64,000 nucleotides of DNA from a virus (IMGVR_UViG_3300031993_000066:4107-68106), one strand, 5' to 3'; shown: positions 5,766-34,009, counted from the first letter of the stretch. The notes: generated from the sequence alone by a model not told the origin. Made by a program: numbers and translations.

Positions 5766-5768
5766 GCT

Positions 5769-5980
5769 TTATCGCCTCCTTGAACGCTGCGCCGCCTGCG
5801 CTGCTCTTTGTCTCTCGCGGGCAGCGGCAATCTGCTCCGCCTCCGCTTCTATCTGGACTTCCATTGATTTCAGCAGAAACGTGCGGATGAAGCGCGGCTT
5901 ACCCATCACTTCGTCCGGGGGCATCCCCGTTTTCTGGAAGATGTAATGGAGCAGCCGCGCTTTCCCGCCAGCGAGTATCA
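5769..5980 (-). CDS. Tail assembly chaperone C-terminal extension (-1 frameshift product)
   Basis: Open -1 frame LILAGGKARLLHYIFQKTGMPPDEV...RSRRR* entered via slippery A AAA AAC at 5981-5987. Confidence 0.8.
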
Positions 5981-6487: not shown

Positions 6488-6606
6488 CCTCTTGTACCAT
6501 CCTTTCAGAATTGTGTGTTAAACGCGATTAAACGCCCACAGGACGGCTTTGGCTCCGTCCCGTGGGTGTTTGCTTTGGTGAAGCCCGAACCGGCTCAGAG
6601 GCCGAA

Positions 6607-7074
6607 TCAGGTGTTCCTCAGCAGGGCCTGCAGCTCCGGCGGCTTGTTGACGATGAAGCTCCACGGCCTCTTGTACAGCTCGCCGACCTGCATGTTCTGG
6701 ATGTCGATGTTCCCGTCCGGCACGCAGTCGCGGTACACGACCTGCTCTTCGCTGCCGTCGTAGGGGCTGCGCATCATGCCGCGGAACGTCCACACGGGCA
6801 TCCTGTGCTGGCTCAGGCCCTCCATGAACTCCTGGAAGAACTTGCTGTCTTCCACGATGATCTCGCTGAACGTCAGCGTCACGCGGTAGCTGGTCATCGC
6901 GCCGTGTTCCTGCGCGTCGCCCAGCGGCTGGAACGTCGCGTTGGTGATGGCGACCTGAGACTGGAAATTCTCCGTCGAGACGAGCATGGTGCCGTCTTCG
7001 CTGTACAGAGCGCCGTCTTTGCCCGACATAACCTTGCGGATGTCGGAGACCGGGGAAGTGTTAAGTACGCTCAT
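6607..7074 (-). CDS. Tail tube protein (XkdM-like)
   Basis: 155 aa after sheath; MSGKDGALY...DCVPDGNIDI. Confidence 0.85.
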   Translation of the reverse strand: MSVLNTSPVSDIRKVMSGKDGALYSEDGTMLVSTENFQSQVAITNATFQPLGDAQEHGAMTSYRVTLTFSEIIVEDSKFFQEFMEGLSQHRMPVWTFRGMMRSPYDGSEEQVVYRDCVPDGNIDIQNMQVGELYKRPWSFIVNKPPELQALLRNT

Positions 7075-7095
7075 TGGTCTTTACTCCTTTCTGCC

Positions 7096-8523
7096 TTAGT
7101 CCTCCGAGAAGTGGAAGCGGTACACGAGGTACACCTTCTCGATGCTGTCGAGGTCGAGGATGTTCAGGATGAACCACGCGCTATCGCCCTTCGCCGGGTT
7201 GCTCGTGTCCTCAACACAGGAGCCGCTCTGCAGCTTGCCCTCCGCGATCATCGCGTTGATGACGCCGTTGGCGATGGCGATGAAGGTCGCCCGACCATTC
7301 GCGTCATTGTTGACGGCGCCGATGATGTTCTCCGCGCTGCTGTTGATGCGGGTGATCAGCTCGAAGCGGGTCTTCGTCCGCCTGATCTTCTTCCAGCCGG
7401 CATCCTGATTCGTGCTCAGGGTGACGAGGGTGTTGATGCCCTGCTCCACCCATACCGCGCCGGAGCTGGCGACGGTAAACACGATGCAGCCGCTCTGCAG
7501 CGCGTTCACGACCTGCGTGTTGGTCAGCGGGCCGACAACCTCCGTCGCGCCGGGCATGACCTTGTGGGTCACGCTGTCGTTGCAGGGCAGGTACGCGATG
7601 TAGCCCGCCAGCACCGCCGCCGCGTTGAAGCCCTCGTACACGTCATCGCCGACCTTGAAGCCGTTCAGGCAGTACACGACGTTCTCGCTGTTCATGCCCG
7701 CCGCCGCCGCTTTCCGGGTATCGAAGGACACGGAGGTGAGCTGTCCGATGACCGCGATACCCATCAGGCCCGCGTCATTGGCGCGGCTGATAAAGGCTTT
7801 CAGCAGCGCGTGGATGGCGACGTCATTCGTGTCGATGCAGATGGTGTTCCACGTGGAGGCTTCCAGCACCACGAAAGCCGCATCGTAGTCGGTGCTGGTG
7901 ATCGTGGGGGAAACGCCCGCCGTGGTGAAGGTGGCCTGCGCCACCGCAGCCATCAGGCCGTTGCCAGTCGCAACCTTCGTCGCGGTGACTACCGCTGCTT
8001 CGCTGCTGTTGATGGCCGCGACCAGCGCATCGACCTCGCCCGCGCTGCCCTTCGCAAACGTCACCTTGCACAGCTCCGTGGTGCCGCTGTAGATGATGCA
8101 TTCGCGCTCCGTGCTCACGCTCAGGCTGTCCTTGATGGTGACGCTCAGGTCGCGGGTTCCGGCGTACTTCGCCGTCAGCGTCACGACGTTGGCGGGGGTG
8201 CTGGCGGTGTCCTGCAGCGTGATCGCCGCTTTGGTGCCGCCGGTGCCGACGCGCACGGCCTTGATCTGGGATGCGCCGCCGAGGAAAATCTTGTTCAGGA
8301 TGGCGACGTTGCTGTTGCTGCCGGAATCGTCGCCGAACGCCGCCGGGATGTCAGCCGGGGAATCCAGCGTCACGATCTCGCCCAGCGGACCCCAGTTCGC
8401 CTGAAACGCCACAGCGACAATGCCGTTGGACGCGCCAGAGATGTCCACTCCGCCGCCGTTTTCCTGCCGGAAATAGATGCCCGGACGGACTTTGGTTTCG
8501 CCTGCGGTGAATCTTCCGCTCAT
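7096..8523 (-). CDS. Tail sheath protein
   Basis: GETKVRPGIY, ANWGP, VEQGINTL, WKKIRR, DSIEKVY motifs of XkdK-type sheaths. Confidence 0.93.
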   Translation of the reverse strand: MSGRFTAGETKVRPGIYFRQENGGGVDISGASNGIVAVAFQANWGPLGEIVTLDSPADIPAAFGDDSGSNSNVAILNKIFLGGASQIKAVRVGTGGTKAAITLQDTASTPANVVTLTAKYAGTRDLSVTIKDSLSVSTERECIIYSGTTELCKVTFAKGSAGEVDALVAAINSSEAAVVTATKVATGNGLMAAVAQATFTTAGVSPTITSTDYDAAFVVLEASTWNTICIDTNDVAIHALLKAFISRANDAGLMGIAVIGQLTSVSFDTRKAAAAGMNSENVVYCLNGFKVGDDVYEGFNAAAVLAGYIAYLPCNDSVTHKVMPGATEVVGPLTNTQVVNALQSGCIVFTVASSGAVWVEQGINTLVTLSTNQDAGWKKIRRTKTRFELITRINSSAENIIGAVNNDANGRATFIAIANGVINAMIAEGKLQSGSCVEDTSNPAKGDSAWFILNILDLDSIEKVYLVYRFHFSED

Positions 8524-8524
8524 G

Positions 8525-8734
8525 TTAGTTTACCTTCCTTTCCGCAAATTCCTTGATGATCTTCTTCGCTACCGCGAGGGTGCAACGCTTGATACCGTTG
8601 TACTCAAACGCCGCCGTAGCGATGTCCACGCTGTAGCCGAACAGGGCCGGAGCGTTCGCAGCGATTTCCGCCACGTCGTATTCCTCTTCCTGCACGACAG
8701 GGGCCTCGACTTTCTTCTCAGCCATCGTTTTCAC
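8525..8734 (-). CDS. Small hypothetical protein preceding sheath
   Basis: Packed ORF in tail operon. Confidence 0.65.
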   Translation of the reverse strand: MKTMAEKKVEAPVVQEEEYDVAEIAANAPALFGYSVDIATAAFEYNGIKRCTLAVAKKIIKEFAERKVN

Positions 8735-8740
8735 TCCCTT

Positions 8741-9751
8741 CTAATCCTCGCCACCCGGTTTCTTGTCTTCGCCGGGTGTCGGGTACTCATACTTGTACCC
8801 CTGACTGGTGCCTCCGCCCACGTCCGCCTCGATCTCTGCCTCGAAAACCTCTCTCGGAGGGTTGACAGGGTATGCCTTGTTCAGCACGTCGCCCGTCCAC
8901 TTGTTCCTGAGGTGCGATTCCGGCTGCAGCAGCCCGAAATATCCCGTGGCCTTGATCTGGCCCGTGGTGATGTAGTTCATGTGCGGCTGGACGGTGAAGG
9001 TTTTCAGGAACAGCGGCGATGTGTCTTCCAGCGTGATATGTCCTATCAGCGCGTGGGCCGTGTTGAGCTGGACGAGGTTGTAAAGCCTGTCCGCCGCGTT
9101 CCTGCAATACACATGGCACTCCACGGCAATGTTCATCCATGTGTAGGCGAAGTGCTGCCGTTCCTTTCCCTGCGCTGTCAGCCGCCAGTAGATCGCGGGC
9201 TTTTTCCTTGTCGGTACGAGCCATCCGTCTATGGTGTCTTCGCCTATGACAACCGCGTTCGGCAGCACTTCCTTCGTCCATGCGTTGAGGCCCTTGATCG
9301 GGTCGGGGTACATCGTGTACTGGCATGGACACGCCGTTACGTCGAACAGGACGGTTACGCCGACTGTGCGTACCGTTTCTTCCTGTTGCTTCTTTATCTC
9401 GAATGCGTCCGATCTCACCCACGCGAAGCAGTATGCGAAATCGTCCGCCTGTGCAAAGGTGGCATGGAGGAGTTCGCGCAGTCTGGCCTCGATGTCTTCC
9501 GGCTCTGCGCCAACCTGTGTATCGCACCAAACATTGACCGTCAGCACTCCGCTCGTATTCCTCGCCGGATTCTCCACCATGTCAAGCGTGTAATCGATAC
9601 GCGGGTACTGGATTTCACTCTGCCACCTCGCGTTCTCTGCCGACGCTGGGCGCTGGTAAAAGACTGCCGCTCCGCCGTTGTACGTCGCCGTCAAGGCTAT
9701 CAGCCTTTCATCGTTTCGCAGGCGGCGATATATCATCTGGTACAGTTCCAT
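8741..9751 (-). CDS. Putative tail terminator/neck protein
   Basis: 336 aa; position between neck genes and sheath. Confidence 0.55.
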   Translation of the reverse strand: MELYQMIYRRLRNDERLIALTATYNGGAAVFYQRPASAENARWQSEIQYPRIDYTLDMVENPARNTSGVLTVNVWCDTQVGAEPEDIEARLRELLHATFAQADDFAYCFAWVRSDAFEIKKQQEETVRTVGVTVLFDVTACPCQYTMYPDPIKGLNAWTKEVLPNAVVIGEDTIDGWLVPTRKKPAIYWRLTAQGKERQHFAYTWMNIAVECHVYCRNAADRLYNLVQLNTAHALIGHITLEDTSPLFLKTFTVQPHMNYITTGQIKATGYFGLLQPESHLRNKWTGDVLNKAYPVNPPREVFEAEIEADVGGGTSQGYKYEYPTPGEDKKPGGED

Positions 9752-18253: not shown

Positions 18254-19663
18254 TTACCGCTCCAGCCGTTTCTTCGCTCTCTCCGCCTGTTTCGCGTCCT
18301 CAGCGTCTTCTTCTTCGATTTCCTCCGCGTCGATGTCTCCGCCGGTCTGCTTTTCCCTTTGGTCGCGCTGCTGCTGCCTCCGAGCGTCCCTGTCGAACTG
18401 CTGCGCTTCCAGACGTTCCGGCAGGTTGCCGGTCTCTCGCACGTAGTCTTCGAGGGCTTCGTCCGGCATGATGACGCCGCACCCGGTCAGCTCTTTGATG
18501 TACGTGCTCAGGTCTTTCAGGTTCGGCGCGTCTGCGCTGCTGTGCGTCAGCGTCGGATATTCGGTGATCCCGCTGAAATGCTCCGCGTTCATCCCGATCA
18601 GCCGGGGAATGCCCTGACTGTTGAACACCTCGCAGATGATGTCGAGGTAGCTGTCCAGCGCCACGCTGAACAGGTCAGTCTTGTCCGCGCTCAGCGCGAA
18701 GCTGCCAACTCCCTGATGGCCCAGCAGCAGGAAATCCGCCATCACGCTCATGGCGATTCGTGTGTCGTACCTCTCGATGATCGCGTTCGTGTCAAACTGC
18801 CGCCTGCCTCCACTGGTGAGCAGCGTGAACTCCCATCCAGCCGGCAGCACCAGTCCCTCCGTCGCGTCGCGGCGCACGTTGCGGACGATTGTCTCCGCCC
18901 GCTGGAATGCCTGCACCATCACCGGGTCATCCTGATTCCAGATGTCCCACGTCTCAGGCGGATGCAGAATCGGCAGGCCTGCGAGGTCTCTTTCCAGCCC
19001 CATGCCCTCGATCTCTTGAATCCTGCGCTTGAAATACCACGAGCGGTAGGCGCTGCGCAGGATGCTCCGCCCTTCCGGGTTGGCTTTCCTGCTCTTCGTG
19101 CGGAAGTGCAGGGCTTTCCCGATGGGAACCGTCGCCATGACGTAGCGCGGGGGAGGGAGCTGCGTCATCCCGGTCAGGTTGTCGTAATCGTCGTACTCCC
19201 AGCGGAAGAGCGTTTCCTGCGCTCTGATCGGGAGTTTCTGCCATCCGATCAGCCCGTCAGTGTACTTGCTTTTCTGTCGGGGGTCGTTCACGTTGCCGGT
19301 GCGCCGCTTGTACACGATTTCGTGGTAGCTCCACCCGAACGGCAGGAAGGACAGAATTTCGCTGATGGTGTCCGTCCACGTGTCCTGCATGTCGTTCATG
19401 CAGCTCTCCACAAACTCCGCGCACTCTCTGTCCTTCGCGCTGTCGCCGCCGGGCTGGATGCTCCAGCTCGTTTTGCGGATGAGCATCTCGATGGTGTACA
19501 GAATCGCTCCGCACACATCGTCGTTTTCGCTCATCTCCCTGTAGACCTCGATGCCGTGCTTGCCCTGCAGCTCTTTGAGGAACTCTTCGGCAAAGATTCC
19601 CGCGTATCGCCTCTGTCCTATGCTGCCATATTCCTTCATGCTCTGCGGCATGTCTCTCTTCAC
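18254..19663 (-). CDS. Portal protein
   Basis: 469 aa after terminase; NPEGRSILRSAY...ERDLAG, GSFALS motifs. Confidence 0.9.
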   Translation of the reverse strand: MKRDMPQSMKEYGSIGQRRYAGIFAEEFLKELQGKHGIEVYREMSENDDVCGAILYTIEMLIRKTSWSIQPGGDSAKDRECAEFVESCMNDMQDTWTDTISEILSFLPFGWSYHEIVYKRRTGNVNDPRQKSKYTDGLIGWQKLPIRAQETLFRWEYDDYDNLTGMTQLPPPRYVMATVPIGKALHFRTKSRKANPEGRSILRSAYRSWYFKRRIQEIEGMGLERDLAGLPILHPPETWDIWNQDDPVMVQAFQRAETIVRNVRRDATEGLVLPAGWEFTLLTSGGRRQFDTNAIIERYDTRIAMSVMADFLLLGHQGVGSFALSADKTDLFSVALDSYLDIICEVFNSQGIPRLIGMNAEHFSGITEYPTLTHSSADAPNLKDLSTYIKELTGCGVIMPDEALEDYVRETGNLPERLEAQQFDRDARRQQQRDQREKQTGGDIDAEEIEEEDAEDAKQAERAKKRLER

Positions 19664-19664
19664 C

Positions 19665-21110
19665 TCATCTCCGCTGCCACGGGCTTATTCTGTCCGCGCC
19701 GTAATTCGTCGGTGGCAGGCTTGACGCCGTGCCTGCTGCCATCCAGTTGATCGCCTGCGTCATTGCGTCCACATCGTCATCGTGCGCTGCGTTCGGGAAT
19801 GCCGCGCACTCTTCCAAAAAATCGTGAATCCACGGTGCTATCCGTGGATGTGGCAGGTAGATGTTCCCTGCTTCCGCGTATGGGGCGACGGCCTGCGCCC
19901 TCACCACCTTGCCGCCTTGCGGGTCGATGGGTATCAGGCCGGAAATCTCTTTCCTCAGCAGCTCGATGACCGCCGTGCCGTTCGCCTTGTCTTCGACGAG
20001 CTTCGCTCTTGCGCGTGGGTGCTTCGCCGTCAGCGTTCGGATGCTCCGCATCGTGTCGCTGATTCCCATGTGATCGTGTACCCTGTCCACGAGGTAGTAG
20101 TTCGGGCCGGTGCGCTGCCATACGTGCCCTGCCACAAAGTCGTGGTTGTCGCCGTCCTTGAACGTACAGTCCCAGCTCTGTACCTGCATCCCCGCTTCCG
20201 GGAGCACTTCGTAGAACTGGAACCAGCTCCGTTTCAGGATTCCGCCCTCCGCCGGTGCCGGTCTCTGCTGGTAAAGCCCTGCGAATGAGTAGCTGCCAAC
20301 CTTGCCTTTCTGCTTCCGCATCCACTCTTCGTCGTACCCGTGCTCAGGCCACAGGGCTTCGCCCTCTGTCCGGCCGAGCAGGTCTTCCGCGTCTTCCGCG
20401 ATGGCCGGTAGCCGCAGTATCGTCCAGTCCTCCACGTCGCAGTATTCCGGGTTCAGCAGGCGCCCAACCAGATCGTCTTCGTGCCAGCGCGTCATTATCA
20501 CGATCACTGCCGCGCCGGGGTGTGTACGGGTTGAGAACGTCGCCGTGTACTCATCCCATATCCTGTCCCTCATGGTTTTGCTGTCTGCTTCCTGCCGATT
20601 CTTCACCGGGTCATCGATAATCAGCAGGTCAGCGCCCTCGCCGGTTGCTGCGCCGCCGAAGCCCACGGAGATCATTCCGCCCCTGCGCCTGTCCAGATCC
20701 CAGTTGGACGCGCTGTGGTTGATCTGGCTCAGGCCGATGTCCCACAGCCGCGCCCCGAATTCCTCTATCTTTTCGCGGTTCTTCCTTCCGAATTTCTGCG
20801 CGAAGGTGTCGTTGTAGCTGACCTCCATCACGCGCTTGTCCGGGAACCGTCCGAGGTAGTAGCTGGGAAAAGTCTCTGTCACCGCCATGCTCTTTCCGTG
20901 TCGGGGTGGCATGCAGATAATCAGACGCTTTTCCTCTCCGCGAATCACCGCGTCCAGCTTTTCACAAATGAGCCGGTGGTGCCTGCCGGGAATCCATGCT
21001 CCGTGGTGGACGTACTCGCAGTACCGCAGGTAGTGCCGCCGCGCCCATTCCCTCTCGAAGTCTGCGCGGGTCGCAATCGGGAGCTTTCCTGCCCTGCGTA
21101 CTTCGCTCAT
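19665..21110 (-). CDS. terL: Terminase large subunit
   Basis: MPPRHGKS Walker A, LLIIDDPVK Walker B, MTRWHEDD, SWD, FPNAAHDDDVDA. Confidence 0.96.
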   Translation of the reverse strand: MSEVRRAGKLPIATRADFEREWARRHYLRYCEYVHHGAWIPGRHHRLICEKLDAVIRGEEKRLIICMPPRHGKSMAVTETFPSYYLGRFPDKRVMEVSYNDTFAQKFGRKNREKIEEFGARLWDIGLSQINHSASNWDLDRRRGGMISVGFGGAATGEGADLLIIDDPVKNRQEADSKTMRDRIWDEYTATFSTRTHPGAAVIVIMTRWHEDDLVGRLLNPEYCDVEDWTILRLPAIAEDAEDLLGRTEGEALWPEHGYDEEWMRKQKGKVGSYSFAGLYQQRPAPAEGGILKRSWFQFYEVLPEAGMQVQSWDCTFKDGDNHDFVAGHVWQRTGPNYYLVDRVHDHMGISDTMRSIRTLTAKHPRARAKLVEDKANGTAVIELLRKEISGLIPIDPQGGKVVRAQAVAPYAEAGNIYLPHPRIAPWIHDFLEECAAFPNAAHDDDVDAMTQAINWMAAGTASSLPPTNYGADRISPWQRR

Positions 21111-21619
21111 GGGCCGACCCCGCTTTCATCGTCGAACATCGCGCACAGCTTCTCGTACTGCGCCAGCTCTTCGTCCGACATGGCGCTCATGCGCTCCCTC
21201 ACGCCGTCGCTGTCCATCACCGCTTCCTGCTGCCGCTGCTCTTCGCCGTAGATGCTCCGCCGCATGACTTCCTCCGCCTTTGCGTCCAGCATCGCCGCCT
21301 CCGATGTCTCGCCCGCCATCTCGATCAGGAACTTGTAGCACGCCATGTCGCCCTTCATGGCCTTTTGCATGATGGCGAGCGTTGCAATGTACCGCATGTC
21401 CGGGTTGACGTTCTTCCTCAGCCCCATCCGGCGCATGGTGTCCAGCATTTGCGGTGGTAAATCCGGCTTGAAGTCGAGCACCAGCTTCGCCGTCTCACGG
21501 GCCTCCCTTTTCGCCCGCCTTGCTGCTCCGCTGGCTATACCGCCCTTCCTGCCGTTCCTCTTGGCTTCCTCACGGTTTTGATCGGAGGTGAACGGTATCA
21601 GATTTTGCTCATTCGCCAT
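21107..21619 (-). CDS. terS: Terminase small subunit (probable)
   Basis: MANEQNLIPF...GRKGGIASG...KAMKGD; overlaps terL start. Confidence 0.75.
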   Translation of the reverse strand: MANEQNLIPFTSDQNREEAKRNGRKGGIASGAARRAKREARETAKLVLDFKPDLPPQMLDTMRRMGLRKNVNPDMRYIATLAIMQKAMKGDMACYKFLIEMAGETSEAAMLDAKAEEVMRRSIYGEEQRQQEAVMDSDGVRERMSAMSDEELAQYEKLCAMFDDESGVGP

Positions 21620-21651: not shown

Positions 21652-22293
21652 CTATGCTGTCGCAATTCGGGCGAGCATAGCGATTTCGGCTCCGAGATAC
21701 AGCCTTTTCAGGCGTTTCGTCTCGTGAATGAGGTGTGCCAGGTACTCTTTGTCCTCAGGGCTTTCGCAGACGATGGCGACGTTGAAGCTCTGTATCACGT
21801 CGGCTTCCGCCTGCTCTTCGTAGTCCTTGAATTCGTCCCTGTCCTGCTTGTCCGGGGTTGCGTCGGCCTCCGAGTAGTAGAGCTGCTCCGCTTCGTTGAA
21901 GCCGGTGAATTCGAGGTCGAATCCGCTGTTGGCGAGGTTCGTCATCTCCGTCATCAACTTGTCGTAGTTCCACCCTGCGATCTCCGCCGTCTTATTGTCT
22001 GCGATGCGGTAGGCGTTGATTTCGTCTTCCGTCAGGCCGTAGGCGTATGTGCAGGGGACTTCTTCCATCCCCAGCATCATGCAGGCTTTCAGCGTCGCGT
22101 GTCCGCACACGATCACGTCGTTTTCGTCGATGACGATGGGCTGCTTCATCCCCAGCCTGTCGATCATCCTCTTGAGCTTCAGCGCCGTCGCTTCGTTTTG
22201 CCGTGGGTTGTTGTGGTAGGGGATAAGGTCTGTGACCTTTTTCATCACCACTTCCAACCGGCTGTTTTTGTCCTTCCCTAACTTGCCCGCCAT
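21652..22293 (-). CDS. ParB/Srx N-terminal domain protein
   Basis: LIPYHNNPRQN, PIVID, VIVCGH, AYRIADNKTAE, WNYDKL. Confidence 0.85.
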   Translation of the reverse strand: MAGKLGKDKNSRLEVVMKKVTDLIPYHNNPRQNEATALKLKRMIDRLGMKQPIVIDENDVIVCGHATLKACMMLGMEEVPCTYAYGLTEDEINAYRIADNKTAEIAGWNYDKLMTEMTNLANSGFDLEFTGFNEAEQLYYSEADATPDKQDRDEFKDYEEQAEADVIQSFNVAIVCESPEDKEYLAHLIHETKRLKRLYLGAEIAMLARIATA

Positions 22294-22463
22294 TTGCTTC
22301 TTACCTCCGTTATCGTATTGTACTTATACAGTATTCTCTATACTTTTCTTTTTCTCGTAGGCGAGATAGTATATATAATATACTGTATTAGGTCGCCGCT
22401 CATTTGCCCTTAACTTGCACGCTTGACTAAATCCGCCTTTCTTAAACTAACACGCGAGCGAGT

Positions 22464-22521
22464 TGTGTTAAACAACGTTGGCTGCGTTAGAACTGCGTTG
22501 GATTGCGTTGGATTGCGTTGG
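22464..22521. repeat. Tandem ~10-bp repeats (TGCGTTGGAT-like)
   Basis: tgcgttagaac tgcgttggat tgcgttggat tgcgttgg plus degenerate copies upstream. Confidence 0.8.
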
Positions 22522-22523
22522 TC

Positions 22524-23816
22524 TCAGCACCCTCCGCACCTTTCGCATGGGCTGATGTAGGTCTTCGTTCCGTCGAACGTGTAGATGATGTCTCCGTTGC
22601 TGTCCTTCCCGCTGGGCTTCATCACTCCGCCGAAAAGCGTGTACGGCGACTGTCCGGCGTATGGGTTATTCCAGAGGTATCGCAGGTAGTCCCGCATCGT
22701 CATGTACTCGAACTTCGCTCTGTGCTCCACGCTGATCGTGTTGAAGCCCTCCGCCTTTCCGTATGGGAAATCGAGGTGCCGCATGTCCGCGTCGATCTCT
22801 GCGAATGTGACCTTGCCGTTCCTCTTGCACAACTGCAGCGCGTAGCTGAAATTGCCCCTGCTGTAATTGTACCGGGGGTCTTCCGGCAATCCGCAGCAGC
22901 ACGAGCCGGTACATGCTTCCTTGTAGTGCGCGTCGCTGACGTAATACCTCATTCCGAGCTTTTTGCACAGCTCGTCCATCTCCCGGATGTACTTCTCCTT
23001 GACCTTGCGGTTCAACCGCAGGTAGCCGCATCCGCTGCTGTACTTTTTGTAAAAGTCGAAGATGTCAAAGCCTGCGCACTCGCTGATGATCTCGTAGTTC
23101 TTCCGGGCGACTACGCTCCGCGCTTCGAGGCAGAAGAATTCCGTCGTGACCGCCGTCGCGCCTGCGTCATGCGCCGCCACGATCAGGTCTTTGTAATCCT
23201 TGCTGCTGACGCCTATGATGAACGGCCTCAGCCTCAGCGTCGCCTCGCCCTTGTTGAGCTGCGAGTAAATCTTCATGGCCTCCAACCGGGCTTTCGGGCT
23301 TGGTACGCCCTGCTCGATCTTCGCCGCCATCCGTTCGTCCAGCGTGATGATGCTGAACTTCATGTTCCAGTTGTCCGCGCCCTCGAACAGGCTCGTGTAC
23401 CTCTGATCGTGGAACACCCACGCGCTCTTCGTCGAAAAGCAAATCGGGTAGTTCAACTGCCGGAGGAACCGCAGGATTTCCAGCGTCACGCCGTACTTCC
23501 GCTCGAATCCGTCGAACTGATCGCTCAGCCCGCCCCACTGTATGGGCCTCCGCTGCGCTATCCATCCGTTGAATTGGCTGTCTGTTTCCAGCGCGAACAG
23601 CTTCCGAATCTTTTCCGGGTTCACGCTCCGCACGACCTTGTTGAGGTATTCCTGCCTCTTCTTCTCTCCGCCGATGCCGCGCTGGTATTGCGAGAAGCAG
23701 TACACGCATCCGAACGAGCAGTTGCTGTAGGTGTCGAAGGTCATCGGCAGGCTGCAGTCGGCAATCTCATTCGACCACCGCGGGCTTCCGTAGTCCATCT
23801 TGATGTCCCGCGTCAT
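22524..23816 (-). CDS. Radical SAM enzyme (SPL-like clade)
   Basis: DTYSNCSFGCVYCF CxxxCxxC motif; FSTK, LRLRPFIIG; extra CCC and C-terminal CxxCxxC. Confidence 0.88.
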   Translation of the reverse strand: MTRDIKMDYGSPRWSNEIADCSLPMTFDTYSNCSFGCVYCFSQYQRGIGGEKKRQEYLNKVVRSVNPEKIRKLFALETDSQFNGWIAQRRPIQWGGLSDQFDGFERKYGVTLEILRFLRQLNYPICFSTKSAWVFHDQRYTSLFEGADNWNMKFSIITLDERMAAKIEQGVPSPKARLEAMKIYSQLNKGEATLRLRPFIIGVSSKDYKDLIVAAHDAGATAVTTEFFCLEARSVVARKNYEIISECAGFDIFDFYKKYSSGCGYLRLNRKVKEKYIREMDELCKKLGMRYYVSDAHYKEACTGSCCCGLPEDPRYNYSRGNFSYALQLCKRNGKVTFAEIDADMRHLDFPYGKAEGFNTISVEHRAKFEYMTMRDYLRYLWNNPYAGQSPYTLFGGVMKPSGKDSNGDIIYTFDGTKTYISPCERCGGC

Positions 23817-24601
23817 CCTCCGTCACCTGCCCTTTGCTGCGCTGCGTTCCTGAACTCCGCGCACGGCACCTTTTCGTCCTTGACCTTGACCCGGACCTCC
23901 CACGGCTTTCCCTTTTGCGGCGCGAAGATTTCCGGGTATCTGGCGCACAGCTTCTTCACCGACCTCAGGTTTTCGTCCTGATGCCACTTCTCCCTGTACC
24001 CGTTCTTGTCCTTGTTATGGTCTGCCGTCACCGCCAGGTTGTTGAACCGCACCACCCGGCCTCCGTTCTTCAGTATCCGGCCGCAAATCTCCGCATCTTC
24101 CTTCGTCTCGAAGTTTTCATCGAACCGTATCGGGAATCCCGCCGCGAATCCGAACACCGTGTTGACCGCCACCCTTGTGCTGATGTCGTTCGACATGAAG
24201 AACGCATTGGCTACCGGGTAAATCCCGAACACGTGCGCTTTCAGCCTCCGCGTCTGCTCGAAGCATCGGTTGAACGCCAGCGCCATGTCTATCCGCCTCT
24301 CGATGGGCTTCAGCTTTCCTGCGTTCATCGTGAAAAGCGTCTTCACGTCATCGTCCAGCATCAGGATGTTTTGCCCTTTGAGCCGTTTGAGGATGTTGTT
24401 CCTCGCCGCCACTCCACGCGTCGCCGGCATCTTCACGATGTTCGCCCTGCCCGCGTGGATTTGGTATTCGGCGTAGTCTTCGTCCGTCTGCACGAAAATC
24501 CAGATCAGCTCTTTGGGTACGCCCATCCCCGACAGGTAATCGAGCGTTGTCTGCCTGTTCACCCTCTTGTAGCTCGGTATCGCGTAAACATACTTTTCCA
24601 T
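23813..24601 (-). CDS. GT-A glycosyltransferase, TET-associated/GREB1-like type
   Basis: YAIPSYKR, ARNNIL, MLDDDV (DxD), KEDAEI. Confidence 0.8.
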   Translation of the reverse strand: MEKYVYAIPSYKRVNRQTTLDYLSGMGVPKELIWIFVQTDEDYAEYQIHAGRANIVKMPATRGVAARNNILKRLKGQNILMLDDDVKTLFTMNAGKLKPIERRIDMALAFNRCFEQTRRLKAHVFGIYPVANAFFMSNDISTRVAVNTVFGFAAGFPIRFDENFETKEDAEICGRILKNGGRVVRFNNLAVTADHNKDKNGYREKWHQDENLRSVKKLCARYPEIFAPQKGKPWEVRVKVKDEKVPCAEFRNAAQQRAGDGG

Positions 24602-24603
24602 GC

Positions 24604-25044
24604 TCACGCCTCCGATGCTCTCTTCCGCGCCGGTCTCACCTGCGCCTCGAAAATTCGGTCTCTCAGGCTTGCGCTGCTCAGGCCGTGATCTCGCCTGTTG
24701 TACACAATCGGGATCCCGCGCCTCTCGCAAATGTTCTTCCCCGTGAAGGGTTTGTCCCGGTATTCCTCCCCGACAAACCTCACGTCGTAGTCCAGCATCT
24801 CCAGCGCCAGCGCGAGGTCTTCTTCGCCCTCCAGCGGTATCACCTCATCCACGCCGTCGCAGTGCGCCACCCGGAACCACCGCTCGAACACGCTTTCGAT
24901 GGGCTTGTTTTTGAGCGGTCTGTCCGTCGGGTCGCAGATAAGCCCCACGATCAGGTAGTCGCACTGTTCGGCGCATTCCTGAATCATGGCGATGTGTCCG
25001 GGGTGGAAAAGGTCTCCCACCACCGACGTGAATCCTATGACCAT
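24604..25044 (-). CDS. Cytidylyltransferase (TagD-like HxGH family)
   Basis: DLFHPGH, CDYLIVGL, ER, VDEVIP, R.HGLSS. Confidence 0.88.
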   Translation of the reverse strand: MVIGFTSVVGDLFHPGHIAMIQECAEQCDYLIVGLICDPTDRPLKNKPIESVFERWFRVAHCDGVDEVIPLEGEEDLALALEMLDYDVRFVGEEYRDKPFTGKNICERRGIPIVYNRRDHGLSSASLRDRIFEAQVRPARKRASEA

Positions 25045-26102
25045 CTCTCTCCATACTCCTTTATCAGTTCGTCGATGACCCTGTCCACTGTCTTCCGCTG
25101 TTTCTCTGTCCTGTACTTGTACAGCCTTATCCAGTGCGTGATTTCCAGCAGCTGCACCAGCCTGCCGTCTTCGACCTTCCTGTCGAATGCCTCCCTCAGC
25201 CCTCTCAGGTCTGCTTTCCCGAATCCGAACAGCCGTTCGTAGCCTGTCATCGAGAATCGAATCTTCGCCAAATCCAGCAGGTAGCTCGAATAATCACCCT
25301 TGTTATTCGGGTCGATCACCTTGATGCCGCCGCCGGTGCTGCGGATGACGTTCGACAAGCTCAAATCTCCGTGGGAGAAGCTGACCTTCGCCTGCAGCTC
25401 TGCTTCGCTGCCCTGCATCTCACGGATGACCCACTCCGTTTCTTCGCTCTTGCTGTGCGTCAGCAGGTTGTCGCAGTATGCTCCGATGTCCTTCCGCCAG
25501 TCCGGGATCGCCGCGAACCGCTCCGTCAGCCGCAGCAGTTCGTCGATGTCCTTCTCCCCGGCTTCGTCTGCCAGCGCCGTTCCCGGTATGTACTCCATGT
25601 ACAGCGTGTCCAGCGTCCGCGAGTAAATCCGGGGGAGGTATTCGCCCAGCCCGTGCTCCGCTGCCTGCAAGTACCATTCGTGCTCCGCCGCTGCTTTCTC
25701 CGTTGTCTTGATGACCGTCTTGTCTTCCAGCCACACCTTTGAGCCGCTTCCGCCCCTCAGTGCCAGCGGCTCGAAATCCGCTTCGAGGAACGTCTCCACG
25801 CTCATGGCCTTATCGTCGATGTACCAGTCCGCGAGCGGCTTCCCGAATATCAGCTCATCGTACATCACGCCGTGCCTTTTCAGCCACTCCCTCAGCACGG
25901 GTTCGTTGCGCTCCCTTATCAGCCGCAAATCTCCCTTGCAGCTATTCTGCCCTCTCGCTGTGTACAGCTTGATGCAGTAGCCCATTTCCTTGAGCCTGTT
26001 GATCTTGTCGATCACCGGCTGAATCGGCTTCGCGTTCGGGTAGTCCCGGTTGTGGTGTACGCTGATCGTATCGTCGATATCAAACACCAGCGTCCGCGCC
26101 AT
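25035..26102 (-). CDS. HAD phosphatase fused to APH/choline-kinase-like phosphotransferase
   Basis: LVFDIDDTI, YTAR, GKP.ADWYIDDKA; then GGSGS, VIK, HGDLSLSN, IDP, DLAK. Confidence 0.85.
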   Translation of the reverse strand: MARTLVFDIDDTISVHHNRDYPNAKPIQPVIDKINRLKEMGYCIKLYTARGQNSCKGDLRLIRERNEPVLREWLKRHGVMYDELIFGKPLADWYIDDKAMSVETFLEADFEPLALRGGSGSKVWLEDKTVIKTTEKAAAEHEWYLQAAEHGLGEYLPRIYSRTLDTLYMEYIPGTALADEAGEKDIDELLRLTERFAAIPDWRKDIGAYCDNLLTHSKSEETEWVIREMQGSEAELQAKVSFSHGDLSLSNVIRSTGGGIKVIDPNNKGDYSSYLLDLAKIRFSMTGYERLFGFGKADLRGLREAFDRKVEDGRLVQLLEITHWIRLYKYRTEKQRKTVDRVIDELIKEYGERWS

Positions 26103-26757
26103 CCGAATCACCTTCCAGCATCTTCCGTATCTGCGCGACGGTGTACCTGCGCTTCAGCTCCCCGGTCTCTCCGATGGTCTCCGCGACTACCTTCTCTTCG
26201 TCTTCGTCCTTACACGCGATGATTACCACGTATTCCTCATCCGTGTCTTCGCTGTCTTCCGGCTCTTCTTCGTCCGGGACGTACTCTCCGCTCTCCGTTT
26301 CCGGCGTGTCGTAATCCTCCGTCCCGGCCTCGAATCCCGCTTCGCTCATGTCGATGCCGCCGATCTCGAATGCGTCGAAGCCGGTTTTGCTCAGGTCGAA
26401 TCCGTTGTTCCTCAGCGTCTCGAATTCCTTCGCCAGCGCCTCCGTGTCCCATTGGCTGTCTTCCTGCGTTCGGTTGTCTTCCAGCCGGTACGCATTGGCC
26501 TCCGCCTTGCTCAGGTCATCTGCCAGCACACACGGCACTTCCTTGTGGCCCAAAATCCGCGCCGCCTTGATGCGCGTGTGTCCTGCGATCAGCACTTTGT
26601 CTTTGTCGATTATCAGTGGCCTGCGCCATCCGTAGTTCTTCAGGCTCTCCACCACCGCCTCGACCGGCTCCCCGTCGTTGTCCCTCGGATTGTTCTCGTA
26701 CTCCCTTATTTCGTCAATCGGGAGATACACGATCTGCGTGACCATTCGCTTCTTCAT
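26080..26757 (-). CDS. ParB/Srx N-terminal domain protein with acidic tail
   Basis: YENNPRDN, PLIID, IAGHTRIKAA, AYRLEDNRT. Confidence 0.87.
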   Translation of the reverse strand: MKKRMVTQIVYLPIDEIREYENNPRDNDGEPVEAVVESLKNYGWRRPLIIDKDKVLIAGHTRIKAARILGHKEVPCVLADDLSKAEANAYRLEDNRTQEDSQWDTEALAKEFETLRNNGFDLSKTGFDAFEIGGIDMSEAGFEAGTEDYDTPETESGEYVPDEEEPEDSEDTDEEYVVIIACKDEDEEKVVAETIGETGELKRRYTVAQIRKMLEGDSDGADAGV

Positions 26758-26849
26758 GTGCTCCGCCCTCCTAAAAATAATGCGCCGCCCGCGATGCGCG
26801 GGTGGCGCTTCCGGGGTGCCGTTCATGGCATCCCTTCCCAGTGATTATA

Positions 26850-26878
26850 ATTTTACACGACGCGATTTCGTCTGTCAA
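26850..26878 (-). promoter_or_regulatory. Sigma-A promoter of modification/packaging operon with operator in spacer
   Basis: TTGACA-17bp-TAAAAT on minus strand; GACGCGATTTCGTC at 26859-26872. Confidence 0.65.
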
Positions 26879-26966
26879 GTTGCAAAGGGTGTGAAAAAAG
26901 TGTGCAAATCGCGGCGATTTTGACGCACGGGTCGTTTTTCGCGTTTCACATGGAACATTCTGCGTC

Positions 26967-29955: not shown

Positions 29956-30483
29956 TCATCCCTTTACGCACCTCCCGCATCCGTCGATCTCGTGACAGAC
30001 GCCTCCGTGGTACATGCACGTCGGCACCAGCCATCTCTCCAGTTCCGGCGTGGCCTTGATCGCTTCGTCGCACATCATCTTCACAACGTGCCGCGTCTTC
30101 GCGCTGGCCTTGCTGCACAGCCTCTTATTCGCTACGGTCATCAGTTCTTCGCCGTTGAGGTAGTAGATCATGTTGACCGGCGTGTTCCGTGGCGCTCTGT
30201 CTCCGTCGATCTTTTCCTGCCTGTCGTTCCTCAGGCTGCTGATGAATGGCACCGCGTGGACGTGTCGGGCGAGGTGCGTCGATGTGTTCGACGGGATTCC
30301 CTCGATCAGGAATGCGTAGTTCAGCACCCGGATGGGGCTGTGCCGCGCTCCCAGCAGCTTTTCCAGCAGCTCGCTGGACGGCGGGGTGTTCGGTTCCTGC
30401 GTCTTTCCCATCGTTATCCACACGCACCGCTTCAGCAGCTTCAGCTCCCTCTCTTCCGGGCCGTAAATCAGCGTGACCTTCAT
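29956..30483 (-). CDS. ThyX-like FAD-dependent thymidylate synthase homologue (divergent)
   Basis: HSPIR, HLARHV-x7-SLR, N.EEL...RLC, LVPTC...C.E...CG; start with GGAGG RBS. Confidence 0.7.
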   Translation of the reverse strand: MKVTLIYGPEERELKLLKRCVWITMGKTQEPNTPPSSELLEKLLGARHSPIRVLNYAFLIEGIPSNTSTHLARHVHAVPFISSLRNDRQEKIDGDRAPRNTPVNMIYYLNGEELMTVANKRLCSKASAKTRHVVKMMCDEAIKATPELERWLVPTCMYHGGVCHEIDGCGRCVKG

Positions 30484-33238: not shown

Positions 33239-34009
33239 CTATCCCTCCCACGGAAATTCCTGCTTGAAGTCCGCGCCCATGATCTCTCTGAGGCTCTCTT
33301 TCATAAAGACCGGGATCCCGTTGCCCTGCGCGTACCGGGCGATCTCATCCACCCATTCCTTTTCCGGGACGATCTTGCCCTTGCGGTTTCCCGTCTCCGC
33401 ACCGATGATCATCCATTGCGGGAGTTCTTTCCGCTCCGCTGCGCCGATGTAGCGGAACCGCTCGTGCAGCGGCTCGATGCTCACAAACGTGTTCACGCCC
33501 TCGCCGAAAAAGTACGGGGTATCAGGGGTCGGCGTAGAGCAGCCGAACCAGAAGTTATCCTCCGTCGGGAGCTGCCCCAGCTTTGCAAGGCTGATGTATC
33601 GTTCCGGGGCCTTCGTCAGGAACAGGTAGCGGTGCTGAGGTGCTTTCCGGCAGGCCTCGAACACTTCCTGAATCCATGCCAGCGGCACCCACTCCCCGAA
33701 AAGGTCTGCCATCGAACAGACAAAGACTGTCCGGGGCTGCTTCCACTTCTGAACTTCGTCCAATTTGTAGCGGTGGAGCGTAGGCTCGAAGTCGTGCAGG
33801 TACGGTACGATTGCACCGATCTTTCCGGGCATCGCTTTCTTTCGCGCCGGTTTGTCCAATTCGTGGATGTTCCGGCATTTCCATTCGGTCAGGTGCATCC
33901 CGAATCGGTTCGCAATCCCTCTTGCGTAGCAATACGGGCAATCGTGGTAGCAGCCGGTTACCGGGTTCCACGAGCTGTCGCACCAGTCAATCTTCGTGTT
34001 TCGTCCCAT
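33239..34009 (-). CDS. Gp37/Gp68 (DUF5131) radical-SAM-like protein
   Basis: TKIDWCDSSWNPVTGCYHDCPYCYA, FVCSMADLF, FLTK, SIEP, IIGAETG. Confidence 0.9.
   Translation of the reverse strand: MGRNTKIDWCDSSWNPVTGCYHDCPYCYARGIANRFGMHLTEWKCRNIHELDKPARKKAMPGKIGAIVPYLHDFEPTLHRYKLDEVQKWKQPRTVFVCSMADLFGEWVPLAWIQEVFEACRKAPQHRYLFLTKAPERYISLAKLGQLPTEDNFWFGCSTPTPDTPYFFGEGVNTFVSIEPLHERFRYIGAAERKELPQWMIIGAETGNRKGKIVPEKEWVDEIARYAQGNGIPVFMKESLREIMGADFKQEFPWEG

Follow-up and report, generated by a model that had tools for sequence, protein, structure and literature searches.

Just ahead of the packaging genes, the viral DNA analysed here (the window, 64,000 nucleotides) carries six cassette ORFs, all on the minus strand within 21652–26757. 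The first, ParB_A (26080–26757), is a protein with a ParB/Srx N-terminal domain, and its start at 26757 is preceded by AGGAGG. It is followed by a HAD-kinase fusion (25035–26102), in which a HAD phosphatase (about residues 1–112) is joined to a sugar kinase of the APH/choline-kinase fold (about residues 120–355), a cytidylyltransferase-like nucleotidyltransferase of the HxGH family (24604–25044; PF01467), a TAGT-family GT-A glycosyltransferase (23813–24601; PF20691), a radical SAM enzyme resembling spore photoproduct lyase (SPL; the enzyme is termed rSAM, 22524–23816), and ParB_B (21652–22245, with an alternative start at 22293), which lies between rSAM and terS. The genes terS (21107–21619) and terL (19665–21110) follow on the same strand and portal (18254–19663) comes next, the two terminase genes being assigned jointly from Terminase_6N, Terminase_6C, phrog_38 (1.2e-124) and phrog_2412. 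The initial annotation had described six co-oriented, mostly overlapping genes directly upstream of terS/terL. Their orientation and position stand. The overlap holds for five of the six, which by their coordinates are connected by overlaps of 23, 10 and 4 nt and a single 2-nt gap; it does not extend to ParB_B, because 230–278 nt, depending on the start chosen, separate this gene from rSAM. A further 32 nt separate ParB_B from terS. The gene identities given at that time (ParB, HAD/kinase, cytidylyltransferase, TAGT-like glycosyltransferase, radical SAM, ParB) were confirmed by family matches in the HMM and structure searches it had suggested, which also confirmed the radical SAM fold.

Upstream of ParB_A lies a candidate promoter on the minus strand (TTGACA-17-TAAAAT, 26878–26850; 11/12 consensus matches). 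A perfect palindrome (AAATCGC-G-GCGATTT, 7+1+7) occupies 26906–26920 and one of its half-sites recurs inside the promoter spacer at 26862–26868, so that palindrome and half-site together form a possible operator. With up to two mismatches allowed, the pattern occurs at two sites in the whole window, the exact one and one with two mismatches at 63036–63050, and two or more matches were also obtained in 5 of 100 shuffles. We propose that the cassette is transcribed together with the packaging genes or just before them.

The rSAM protein carries the CxxxCxxC motif of the SAM cluster as CSFGCVYC. In an alignment of 57 sequences C33, C37 and C40 are invariant and C21, C307 and C308 near-invariant; these last three are the only other cysteines conserved, and no clear second Fe-S site is seen. 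Against Radical_SAM (PF04055) the window protein scores 19.9 bits, below the gathering score of 29.5 that several of its homologues reach, but its place in the superfamily is confirmed by the motif together with the predicted fold. With the AF2 model (pLDDT 94.5) as the query, the top six Foldseek matches are all SPL (best E 1.3e-7), and the VIA comparison with SPL gives Z 19.5 and rmsd 2.9 for 263 residues, the next non-SPL entry having Z 16.1. SPL chemistry involves a radical on the methyl group of a thymine in DNA. SPL (PDB 4fhc and related entries), itself a DNA-acting radical SAM enzyme, is the best structural match to core residues 1–295 of rSAM. The two differ in that identity is only 13–18%, that rSAM continues beyond the core into an additional C-terminal domain (about 135 residues) in which a CC pair is conserved, and that rSAM sits in a modification context and SPL in repair; this context argues against photoproduct repair. 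The NCBIfam models PA0069 (9.9e-20, 70.8 bits, cut-off 360) and Rv2578c (50.2 bits, cut-off 430) match without their cut-offs being reached, and for this reason rSAM is, by sequence comparison, a separate subfamily of the SPL-like clade (COG1533 'DNA repair photolyase'), which includes the PA0069 and Rv2578c families.

The glycosyltransferase matches PF20691 at 59.4 bits (cut-off 27.5; 5.9e-16) over profile positions 4–205 of 205, and a DDD (DxD-type) motif is visible in its translation. It also matches phrog_842 (1.1e-19), whose members are annotated 'beta-glucosyl-HMC-alpha-glucosyltransferase', and among deposited phages its closest matches, at 24–29% identity, are unstudied glycosyltransferases from phages that infect Arthrobacter, Mycobacterium and Synechococcus. 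In the fusion protein, the kinase domain reaches the APH cut-off (PF01636, 27.3 versus 23.2), its nearest folds being fructosamine-3-kinase, APH(3'), maltokinase, glucosamine kinase and LicA. The HAD domain matches TIGR01689 (1.6e-20, below cut-off), resembles 'capsule biosynthesis phosphatase' models and is 41% identical (Foldseek; profile E 2e-20) to 9iqw, the D-arabinose 1,5-diphosphate phosphatase AfhF of phage HY126. Across HAD-kinase homologues D8 and D10 (DxD) and H244-G245-D246 are invariant and N251 near-invariant. The nucleotidyltransferase, which we propose makes an NDP-activated donor, matches CTP_transf_like (PF01467) at 40 bits against 21, with rfaE_dom_II (6.4e-12) and TagD (6e-9) below their cut-offs; models for heptose-1-P adenylyltransferase and glycerol-3-P cytidylyltransferase score similarly, so that the CDP-activated donor of the initial annotation is only one possibility. 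In the PDB it aligns with TagD over its full length (1e-7) and with ECT over a part only (6e-9), its closest entries being phospho-alcohol-activating enzymes, which sits oddly beside a GT-A sugar transferase.

AfhE and AfhF make UDP-arabinofuranose for the arabinosyl-5-hydroxycytosine of RB69, DLP3 and HY126, according to the available text of the report (Lee et al., NAR 2026, PMC13326640), and by analogy we propose that the donor genes of the window follow the same bisphosphate logic. The two systems have in common an AfhF-homologous HAD phosphatase and, as far as the available text describes AfhE, the kinase, phosphatase and nucleotidyltransferase logic; the window has an APH-fold sugar kinase with the HGD...N motif as the putative counterpart of the AfhE kinase. 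The same text gives AfhE as a kinase-nucleotidyltransferase fusion with a MurU-like nucleotidyltransferase fold, whereas in the window the phosphatase is fused to the kinase and the nucleotidyltransferase is of the PF01467 type. It tabulates the arabinosyltransferases of those phages against BshA and sucrose-phosphate synthase structures, whereas the enzyme here is of the TAGT family (PMC13326640). The window phage also differs in having neither an arabinose-5-P isomerase (no SIS domain in G000, G001 or G002) nor a ThyA-type 5hoC synthase. That the transferred sugar is a pentofuranose is a guess. HAD-kinase matches occur in 389 phage records, HY126 included, and most span the HAD part only. 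In the cultured Agathobaculum phage AB434P2 (OP172633.1) both donor genes have homologues, the HAD-kinase fusion at 36% identity over 97% coverage and the nucleotidyltransferase (gene 5) at 62% identity. AB434P2 differs in that these donor genes are paired, within genes 2–7, with dUTPase_2, a thymidylate-kinase-like gene and a member of the ThyA family whose annotation is dUMP hydroxymethyltransferase, and it has no match to the window rSAM or TAGT. The AfhF likeness and these phage matches link the donor module to DNA glycosylation.

We compared the locus with 77 related loci encoding an rSAM at least 40% identical. Since many are near-duplicates or derive from MAGs, the counts that follow are not counts of independent events. 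Where at least 3 kb of upstream sequence was present (60 loci), a ParB gene lies at most six genes upstream of rSAM in 57; where at least 2.5 kb of downstream sequence was present (70 loci), terL lies at most four genes downstream in 60. The initial annotation had made its reading depend on conservation next to terminases, and this synteny bears it out. The whole gene set recurs before terS/terL in three viral loci (L002, L003, L010) and partially in L001, and ParB_B keeps its position between rSAM and terS in these four loci and in L017. ParB_A reaches the gathering score of ParB_N (PF02195, 30.3 bits versus 26.3) and matches phrog_620 at 1.1e-49; ParB_B matches the same family (5.8e-47), its Pfam scan being without any match. 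The synteny shows rSAM and one or two ParB-like proteins as the constant core directly upstream of terS/terL.

The genes between these core members are shown by the same comparison to be interchangeable decorating modules. Their classes, with module identities verified by Pfam on representatives, are distributed over the 60 loci as AADT (amino-acid:DNA transferase) with kinase and GNAT (13), kinase only (11), TAGT with HAD-kinase (8), TAGT (7), AADT with kinase (7), AADT with GNAT (7), AADT (1) and none of these (6). HAD-kinase, TAGT and rSAM thus occur together in 8/60 loci, and TAGT and AADT in the same locus in none of the 60. In L017, where rSAM is 75% identical and the flanks are the same, a single P-loop kinase replaces the HAD-kinase, the nucleotidyltransferase and TAGT. 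The rSAM tree (59 rows) requires at least 20 changes of module type, the minimum possible being 3 and the shuffled mean 27.4, and within its starred clades TAGT loci stand beside kinase-only loci or beside AADT loci. Of the 20 long rSAM-family representatives scanned, 8 carry a fused TAGT. The fusions occur in both domain orders, a single kinase-rSAM-TAGT protein exists, and an FkbM methyltransferase fusion is also found among the partners. The P-loop kinases give faint HMUD2 and Ploopntkinase3 matches. GATase is present in 4/77 loci and a phage SAM synthetase in 17/77. The partner enzymes (TAGT, P-loop kinases, AADT, the FkbM fusion and GNAT) all act on or downstream of a hydroxyl, and an rSAM seemingly indifferent to the appended group fits a common first step.

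The initial annotation had seen no TET/JBP dioxygenase, hydroxymethylase or methyltransferase, and the wider search agrees. The complete 68-kb phage record has no match to ThyA-type hydroxymethylases (PF00303), Tet/JBP (PF12851) or C5-methylases (PF00145), and the same is true of all five phage records covered (this one and four related, three of them at least 90% complete). ThyA queries gave no match in 89 loci (1.09 Mb), and the Pfam scans of the 55 other window ORFs list no oxygenase or DNA methyltransferase. The Tet/JBP part of this result, from which the TAGT family takes its name and in which the window phage would differ from that family, is a weak negative, because the search was silent everywhere (the 68-kb record, the four related phages, 0/50 host genomes and 14 control genomes) and had no positive control. 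What the window does contain, 4–6 kb upstream, is a MazG-like gene and a short, divergent ThyX-like gene (29956–30483), and the latter could supply a hydroxymethyl nucleotide before replication. It recurs in the nearest relative, G001, and was not found in G002, G003 or G004. Used as a query it has no match in five host genomes with related loci, whose own ThyA/ThyX matches are single, strong and of the housekeeping type, apart from an additional Thy1 match, which lies on a contig whose length rules it out as that of the locus.

Taken together, we consider it very probable that the cassette is a post-replicative DNA base hypermodification system of a gut-type temperate phage. That rSAM is the initiating, handle-making enzyme we hold to be somewhat better than an even bet, and that the modified base is thymine about an even one. 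There is an equal chance, in our judgement from the sequences, that rSAM and ParB make a thymine hydroxyl in DNA without oxygen, to which TAGT then adds a sugar from a phage-made NDP-sugar. In this scheme rSAM, with ParB as DNA-side helper, would cleave SAM and remove one hydrogen of the C5-methyl group on a thymine of the phage DNA; the thymine radical would be oxidised and hydrated to 5-hydroxymethyluracil, so that the hydroxyl oxygen would come from water and not from O2. We know of no precedent for DNA hydroxylation by a radical SAM enzyme using water. The HAD-kinase, acting as a sugar-phosphate 1-kinase and then as a bisphosphate phosphatase, and the cytidylyltransferase-like enzyme would build the donor, starting with a sugar phosphate of the host: sugar-P would become sugar-1,x-bisphosphate, then sugar-1-P and finally NDP-sugar. 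TAGT would put the sugar on the new hydroxyl, giving a base-J-like glycosyl-hydroxymethyluracil. The earlier statement that the chemistry matches no pathway is thereby narrowed: rSAM probably provides the missing hydroxylation and the donor genes would follow the AfhE/AfhF logic. In kinetoplastids, JBP1/2 hydroxylate T and a glucosyltransferase follows, as outlined in the introduction of PMC13229309. The proposed route would share with base J its two-step order on finished DNA, in which thymine becomes 5hmU and is then O-glycosylated by a TAGT-type enzyme. The J glucosyltransferase is a TAGT family member. The hydroxylating enzyme would here be of another class, the donor phage-made rather than cellular UDP-glucose, and the role is presumably anti-defence in a phage rather than gene regulation in a eukaryote.

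Some observations weigh against this reading. The kinase-only loci and those with none of the modules imply phosphomethyl-uracil and bare hmU as end products. To our knowledge neither is a final phage modification. In addition, the sole studied relative, gp53 of Pseudomonas phage M6, does not hydroxylate but has a tailoring role as an isomerase: the available text places this SPL-like radical SAM enzyme in the 5-NedU pathway, where it isomerises after amino acid attachment (Lee et al., NAR 2021/22, PMC8989533). It is thus, on that description, a member of the same clade within a phage thymidine hypermodification cluster, and at profile level a remote homologue of the window rSAM (hhalign 97%, E 2.8e-11, 234 columns). 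By this precedent rSAM would isomerise, epimerise or in some other way rework a group already attached by TAGT, AADT or kinase, with the hydroxyl coming from elsewhere, for example from the ThyX-like gene that lies with the MazG-like gene upstream, and AB434P2 shows that a ThyA-type enzyme acting before replication can be the partner of the donor module. We consider this unlikely. The gp53 match is not significant in BLASTP (E 0.21), so that it is not an orthologue; in tblastn gp53 is matched by the small additional rSAM paralogue that L004, L006 and L019 have. M6 also encodes gp58, a hydroxymethylase of the ThyA type, and a PLP enzyme beside gp53, both lacking in the window phage, and the ThyX-like gene is missing from the three related phages and five host genomes named above. 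Furthermore, the modules that accompany rSAM orthologues of 62–75% identity range from sugar, amino-acid and kinase-only to none, and as the tree has at least 20 switches, a tailoring enzyme would need to track its substrate; in 6/60 loci ParB and rSAM occur without known modules.

Less probable still is an rSAM that activates the base without a free hydroxyl, the thymine-methyl radical or cation being captured directly by the incoming group or a conserved cysteine; the resulting C-C, C-S or C-O linkage chemistry would be unlike any known pathway. The near-invariant C21, C307 and C308 outside the SAM cluster, the tight TAGT fusions in both orders and the lack of an evident auxiliary cluster for electron removal would all suit such a capture. 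However, the known members of the TAGT, P-loop kinase and FkbM O-methyltransferase families are hydroxyl-directed, and published kinase and AADT pairs, in the available text of two reports, require 5hmU (PMC8989533, PMC5889632).

It is very improbable that the glycosyltransferase and donor genes decorate virion proteins or host cell-wall polymers, with rSAM and ParB as mere neighbours: the unstudied nearest TAGT matches (24–29% identity), the virion glycosylation known for mycobacteriophage glycosyltransferases, the capsule-phosphatase likeness of the HAD domain and the TagD likeness of the nucleotidyltransferase are outweighed by the evidence that upholds DNA as the target, namely the TAGT-rSAM fusions, the fold of a DNA enzyme, ParB linkage in 57/60 loci, the replacement of the sugar module by amino-acid:DNA transferase modules in the same slot, the phrog_842 annotation and the place of the AB434P2 donor genes among nucleotide-metabolism and replication genes.

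If rSAM is the handle-making enzyme, it would take the place that Fe/2OG thymine dioxygenases (5mYOX, TET/JBP) occupy in other phages. The available text of O'Toole et al. (PNAS 2026, PMC13229309) describes ParB-dependent 5mYOX (TET/JBP clade C1) as 'consistently linked' with GATases, P-loop kinases and AADTs, and lists GTs, ParBs and terminases as the top co-occurring domains of 5mYOX. The window family has this context (ParB in 57/60 loci, terL in 60/70, and kinase, AADT and GT partners), and the likeness to those cassettes, as that text presents them, would lie in a ParB-like helper adjoining the enzyme responsible for the first step on DNA thymine, in P-loop kinase, AADT, GATase and glycosyltransferase partners, and in frequent terminases. 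Because of those ParB-dependent T-dioxygenases (PMC13229309), ParB_A is likely, by analogy, the DNA-side helper of rSAM. The difference is the first enzyme, an SPL-like radical SAM here and, in the available text, an Fe(II)/2-oxoglutarate dioxygenase there; since no Fe(II)/2OG 5mYOX was found, the locus is a variant and not a member of the O'Toole ParB-dependent cassettes. Neither 'radical SAM' nor 'anaerob' occurs in the main text of PMC13229309, and we found no description of an rSAM-ParB phage cassette family in the literature. We infer that the cassette acts around packaging time and has an anti-restriction role: the modified DNA would be packaged, presumably shielded from host nucleases. 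Most of the organisms named for the genome loci are anaerobes of the gut or rumen, and with a radical SAM enzyme instead of an Fe(II)/2-oxoglutarate dioxygenase the first step of the modification would need no O2.

The six co-oriented open reading frames claimed in the initial annotation are present at 21652–26757, all on the minus strand, which carries almost all genes of the window. They encode, in order, a ParB-like protein (ParB_A, 26080–26757, starting at an ATG behind AGGAGG), a fused HAD phosphatase and APH-fold kinase of 355 residues (HAD-kinase, 25035–26102), a CTP_transf_like nucleotidyltransferase of 146 residues (24604–25044), a TAGT glycosyltransferase of 262 residues (23813–24601), a radical SAM protein of 430 residues (rSAM, 22524–23816), and a second ParB-like protein (ParB_B, 21652–22245); terS (21107–21619), terL (19665–21110), and the portal gene (18254–19663) follow. 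The first five genes are joined by overlaps of 23, 10, and 4 nt and one 2-nt gap, and 230–278 nt lie between rSAM and ParB_B. A strong candidate sigma-70-like promoter, TTGACA-17-TAAAAT with 11 of 12 consensus matches, is located at 26878–26850; directly upstream is a perfect 7+1+7 palindrome (26906–26920), and a half-site occurs in the promoter spacer. The earlier wording of an "operator-bearing promoter" is therefore fair as a description of the sequence, with the palindrome as a putative operator. Between the candidate promoter and the start of ParB_A, the leader contains a GC-rich hairpin (26782–26808; 12-nt arms, 3-nt loop) that may be a regulatory RNA structure.

The window spans bases 4107–68106 of a source record of 68,106 bp with a CheckV completeness of 100%. 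Structural genes lie at the low end of the record, an integrase and CI/Cro-like regulators at 43.4–48.2 kb, and lysis and diversity-generating retroelement (DGR) genes at the high end; this order suggests that the record is a temperate phage genome in circularly permuted form, so that family searches of it cover the entire phage. The DGR (58936–60794, minus strand; RVT_1 at 58936–60126, bAvd at 60423–60794) adjoins presumed tail-fibre genes, and 46856–48163 is a plus-strand interval within the integrase/regulator region. An ADP-ribosylglycohydrolase with no evident link to the cassette (51951–53243, minus strand; PF03747, 5e-64) may counter host ADP-ribosylating defence. Besides the rSAM gene, the window's early region holds another gene related to radical SAM proteins (33239–34009, minus strand); it resembles DUF5131 and "radical SAM mobile pair protein A", has a CxxxCxxC-like motif, and has a homologue in L010, one of the loci with a related rSAM.

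Searches of Pfam, PHROGs, and NCBIfam uphold the identities first assigned to the six genes (ParB, HAD/kinase, cytidylyltransferase, TAGT-like glycosyltransferase, radical SAM, ParB). ParB_A matches ParB_N in Pfam at 30.3 bits, and both ParBs match phrog_620 (1e-49 for ParB_A, 6e-47 for ParB_B). The N-terminal HAD domain of the fusion matches the NCBIfam model TIGR01689, "capsule biosynthesis phosphatase", at 1.6e-20, under its cut-off, and the kinase half matches the Pfam APH family at 27.3 bits. The nucleotidyltransferase (PF01467, 40 bits) is near-equally similar to heptose-1-P adenylyltransferase (6e-12) and glycerol-3-P cytidylyltransferase (6e-9). The TAGT aligns across the full Pfam profile (PF20691, 5.9e-16) and also matches phrog_842, whose members are annotated as T-even beta-glucosyl-HMC alpha-glucosyltransferase; a comparison with PDB sequences gave no meaningful match.

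The rSAM carries a CSFGCVYC motif; among named families it is closest to PA0069 and Rv2578c ("DNA repair photolyase"), scoring far under their cut-offs. Sequence and profile searches of the PDB gave chance-level matches only, and spore photoproduct lyase (SPL) was found by fold comparison only. The AlphaFold model is confident (pLDDT 94.5); its best six Foldseek matches are all SPL (E from 1.3e-7), and VIA-align places it on SPL with a Z of 19.5 and an rmsd of 2.9 Å over 263 residues, the next non-SPL entry having a Z of 16.1. Residues 296–430 fall outside the SPL match. In a 57-sequence alignment, D28, C33, C37, C40, K130, and P198 are invariant, and the near-invariant columns include C21, C307, and C308. 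The family numbers 2157 proteins at E ≤ 1e-3 among 5002 candidates in 90% clusters, and 1584 representatives in 50% clusters (E ≤ 1e-3), 171 of them below 1e-30. A tblastn search of 50,697 deposited phage records returned zero matches at 1e-5, so no cultured phage among them has the rSAM. Complex prediction for rSAM and ParB_B scored 0.00 in two runs, which, made without controls, speak neither for nor against binding.

Protein fusions connect the rSAM to transfer enzymes. TAGT is fused in 8 of the 20 long representatives scanned, N-terminal to the rSAM in P0121, P0124, and P0148 and C-terminal in P0130, P0132, P0133, P0139, and P0143; P0133 combines P-loop kinase3, rSAM, and TAGT. An FkbM methyltransferase accompanies the rSAM in P0128, and 4/20 contain nothing extra. 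Fusions to GNAT are seen in P0004, P0005, and P0008, and further TAGT fusions in P0037, P0044, and P0112. In 8/20 long representatives (P0126, P0137, P0139, P0147, P0180, P0205, P0225, P0234) the rSAM is interrupted by an intein, which in several of them contains a LAGLIDADG homing endonuclease.

We gathered 11 viral and 78 genome loci with related rSAMs, called and BLAST-clustered their open reading frames locally, and identified the clusters by Pfam on representatives. Counts omit L005 (a duplicate of L004), L011 and L094 (without a full rSAM call), and rSAMs below 40% identity, leaving 77 loci. Sixty loci have 3 kb or more of sequence upstream of the rSAM, and in 57 of them a ParB lies there within six genes; 70 loci have 2.5 kb or more on the downstream side, and 60 of these show a large terminase within four genes. 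The cassette is thus conserved beside terminases, and the lack of conservation that would have refuted the first reading is not seen. A phage SAM synthetase accompanies the rSAM in 17/77. The module between ParB and rSAM varies, within the limits of a calling procedure that undercounts small genes such as the nucleotidyltransferase: amino-acid:DNA transferase (AADT) with kinase and GNAT in 13/60 loci, P-loop kinase alone in 11/60, TAGT with HAD-kinase in 8/60, TAGT, AADT with kinase, and AADT with GNAT in 7/60 each, AADT in 1/60, and none of these in 6/60. TAGT and AADT occur together in none of the 60. In L017, whose rSAM is 75% identical to that of the window and has the same flanks, one kinase replaces the three donor and transfer genes, and in L018 a class-I methyltransferase occupies the slot. 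Across the 59 rows of an rSAM tree restricted to proteins of up to 520 residues, the module type switches at least 20 times (possible minimum 3, shuffled mean 27.4, no shuffle as low). Near-identical loci and MAG contigs enter both the locus counts and this one, so that the events are not independent. Clades starred on this tree mix TAGT with kinase-only modules, and TAGT with AADT. The organisms named in the genome loci are mostly gut and rumen anaerobes, among them Clostridia, Bacteroidales (including Segatella and Prevotella), Victivallales, Selenomonas, and Treponema, a distribution that collection and search patterns may bias. In L002, the closest viral relative, a DDE transposase (518 aa, PF01609) splits the rSAM gene (6118–9200), and an additional SPASM-type radical SAM gene (5207–6130) lies between TAGT and rSAM; a SPASM gene is seen again in L065 and L074.

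A published parallel exists for this arrangement. According to the main text of O'Toole et al. (PNAS 2026, PMC13229309), one subclass of phage thymine dioxygenases requires a neighbouring ParB-like activator on dsDNA and is "consistently linked" with GATases, P-loop kinases, and AADTs; the commonest neighbours of these TET/JBP-clade enzymes (5mYOX) are glycosyltransferases (31%), ParBs (27%), and terminases (19.2%). Compared with the 5mYOX cassettes as described there, the present loci share companions and position, with the rSAM standing in the place of the dioxygenase; "radical SAM" and "anaerob" have zero occurrences in that main text. A search of the literature on radical SAM with TAGT, with 5-hydroxymethyluracil/glycosyltransferase, or with ParB/terminase found no description of the cassette; domain co-occurrence lists or gene tables in the supplements of PMC13229309 and PMC13326640 may bear on its novelty.

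Searches for a known enzyme that would supply a hydroxyl handle on the base found none. The initial annotation saw no TET/JBP dioxygenase or methyltransferase in the window, and this holds: Pfam lists no oxygenase or DNA methyltransferase for 55 further window ORFs, where its hits are to families of replication, recombination, lysogeny, lysis, and DGRs, and six-frame searches of five phage records (G000, the window's own, to G004; three at least 90% complete) returned no Thymidylat_synt, C5 DNA methylase, or Tet_JBP, the last without a positive control. Two ThyA-type queries gave zero matches in the 89 loci (1.09 Mb). Tet_JBP (PF12851) gave zero in 50 host genomes and also in 14 control genomes, and that search is thus likewise without a positive control.

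The first reading of the locus as a DNA hypermodification cassette is well supported, because the fusions, the SPL-like fold, the ParBs, the interchange of sugar and AADT modules, and the donor module's association with DNA glycosylation all point to it. Given the module swapping, the module-less loci, the hydroxyl-directed partners, the missing alternative maker, and the dioxygenase-cassette parallel, we infer as the most economical reading that the rSAM acts first and produces the hydroxyl handle. We know of no biochemical precedent for a radical SAM enzyme doing so on DNA. Thymine is the favoured base, since no C5-methylase was found, AADT/kinase pathways begin at 5hmU, and SPL chemistry passes through a thymine methyl radical.

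The main rival is that the rSAM is a tailoring enzyme like gp53 of Pseudomonas phage M6. The gp53 protein, the one SPL-like radical SAM enzyme whose role in DNA hypermodification is known, isomerises N-alpha- to C-alpha-glycinylthymine (PMC8989533). The window rSAM is homologous to it at the profile level only (hhalign 97%, E 2.8e-11, 234 columns; BLASTP E 0.21). A second, smaller SPL-like rSAM lies upstream of ParB in L004 (4812–5654), L006 (4696–5400), and L019 (4883–5725); tblastn links these paralogues to gp53, which BLASTP did not do for the window rSAM. The small paralogue may be the true tailoring enzyme in those three loci, and the pairing of a gp53-like paralogue with a window-type rSAM is consistent with separate tasks for the two.

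A ThyX-like gene is retained, for the window phage only, as a rival source of the handle. The ORF (29956–30483, minus strand; 175 aa) is divergent, matches the Thy1 model only in part, and has a partly changed ThyX signature (RHVHAVPFISSLR); the protein may be a decayed thymidylate synthase, or a variant that modifies nucleotides. It occurs in G000 and its nearest relative, G001. As a general component it was rejected, being absent from G002–G004 and, when its protein was searched against five host genomes that carry loci of this kind, without a match. What those five genomes do contain are single, strong ThyA and ThyX matches of housekeeping type; one further Thy1 match is on a contig too long to be a locus contig.

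The donor genes point toward an activated sugar. The fusion model is of high confidence (pLDDT 94.2); its kinase half matches the folds of fructosamine-3-kinase, APH(3'), maltokinase, glucosamine kinase, and LicA, and its HAD half is 41% identical (profile E 2e-20) to PDB 9iqw, the D-arabinose 1,5-diphosphate phosphatase AfhF of phage HY126. According to Lee et al. (NAR 2026, PMC13326640), the APH-like domain of AfhE phosphorylates arabinose-5-P at C1 and AfhF strips the 5-phosphate, leading to UDP-arabinofuranose and arabinosylation of 5-hydroxycytosine in DNA. Set against that account, the window enzymes share the kinase, phosphatase, and nucleotidyltransferase logic, but the fusion has another partner and the nucleotidyltransferase comes from a different family (PF01467; PDB neighbours TagD, ECT, and CCT). 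Those neighbours would suit CDP-glycerol or another CDP-alcohol as donor; we rank this below an NDP-sugar because the cassette has an AfhF-like phosphatase and a GT-A transferase. G000–G002 contain no SIS domain, so the phage has no isomerase of its own, and the donor pathway would have to start from a sugar phosphate of the host. Among deposited phages, 389 records match the fusion, most of them T-even-like and in the HAD part only, HY126 among them. AB434P2, a cultured Agathobaculum phage of a strict gut anaerobe, has the entire fusion (36% identity, 97% coverage) and a nucleotidyltransferase 62% identical, adjoining a ThyA-family gene (annotated dUMP hydroxymethyltransferase), dUTPase_2, and a thymidylate-kinase-like gene. 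One donor module therefore stands beside a classical pre-replicative hydroxy(methyl)pyrimidine pathway there and beside rSAM/ParB here, and AB434P2 makes the sugar-donor half directly accessible to experiment. We rejected, on context, a repair function for the SPL-like rSAM.

We class the cassette as a ParB-linked, terminase-adjacent thymine hypermodification system, novel in its radical SAM protein replacing the dioxygenase and in its form of sugar activation. The rSAM with its ParB helpers would be the first oxygen-independent DNA thymine hydroxylase, a non-homologous substitute for TET/JBP in phages of strict anaerobes; in the window phage it would begin a base-J-like glycosyl-hydroxymethyluracil, the sugar, possibly a pentofuranose, coming from a new fused AfhE/AfhF variant. 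Taken whole, this proposal is tentative, and we give it somewhat less than an even chance of being right. Phage DNA is known to gain hydroxymethyl- and hydroxypyrimidines by two routes, through ThyA-type enzymes at the nucleotide level or through O2-dependent dioxygenases on the DNA itself. A radical SAM route, if true, would explain how phages whose gut and rumen hosts are strict anaerobes come to have hypermodified DNA; it would also extend radical SAM enzymology by one reaction type and provide an oxygen-free tool to write 5hmU into DNA. The family may alter the sequencing behaviour of such phage DNA and, since it is large (1584 representatives) and in these loci mostly from gut and rumen bacteria, may shape which restriction and CRISPR defences are effective there.
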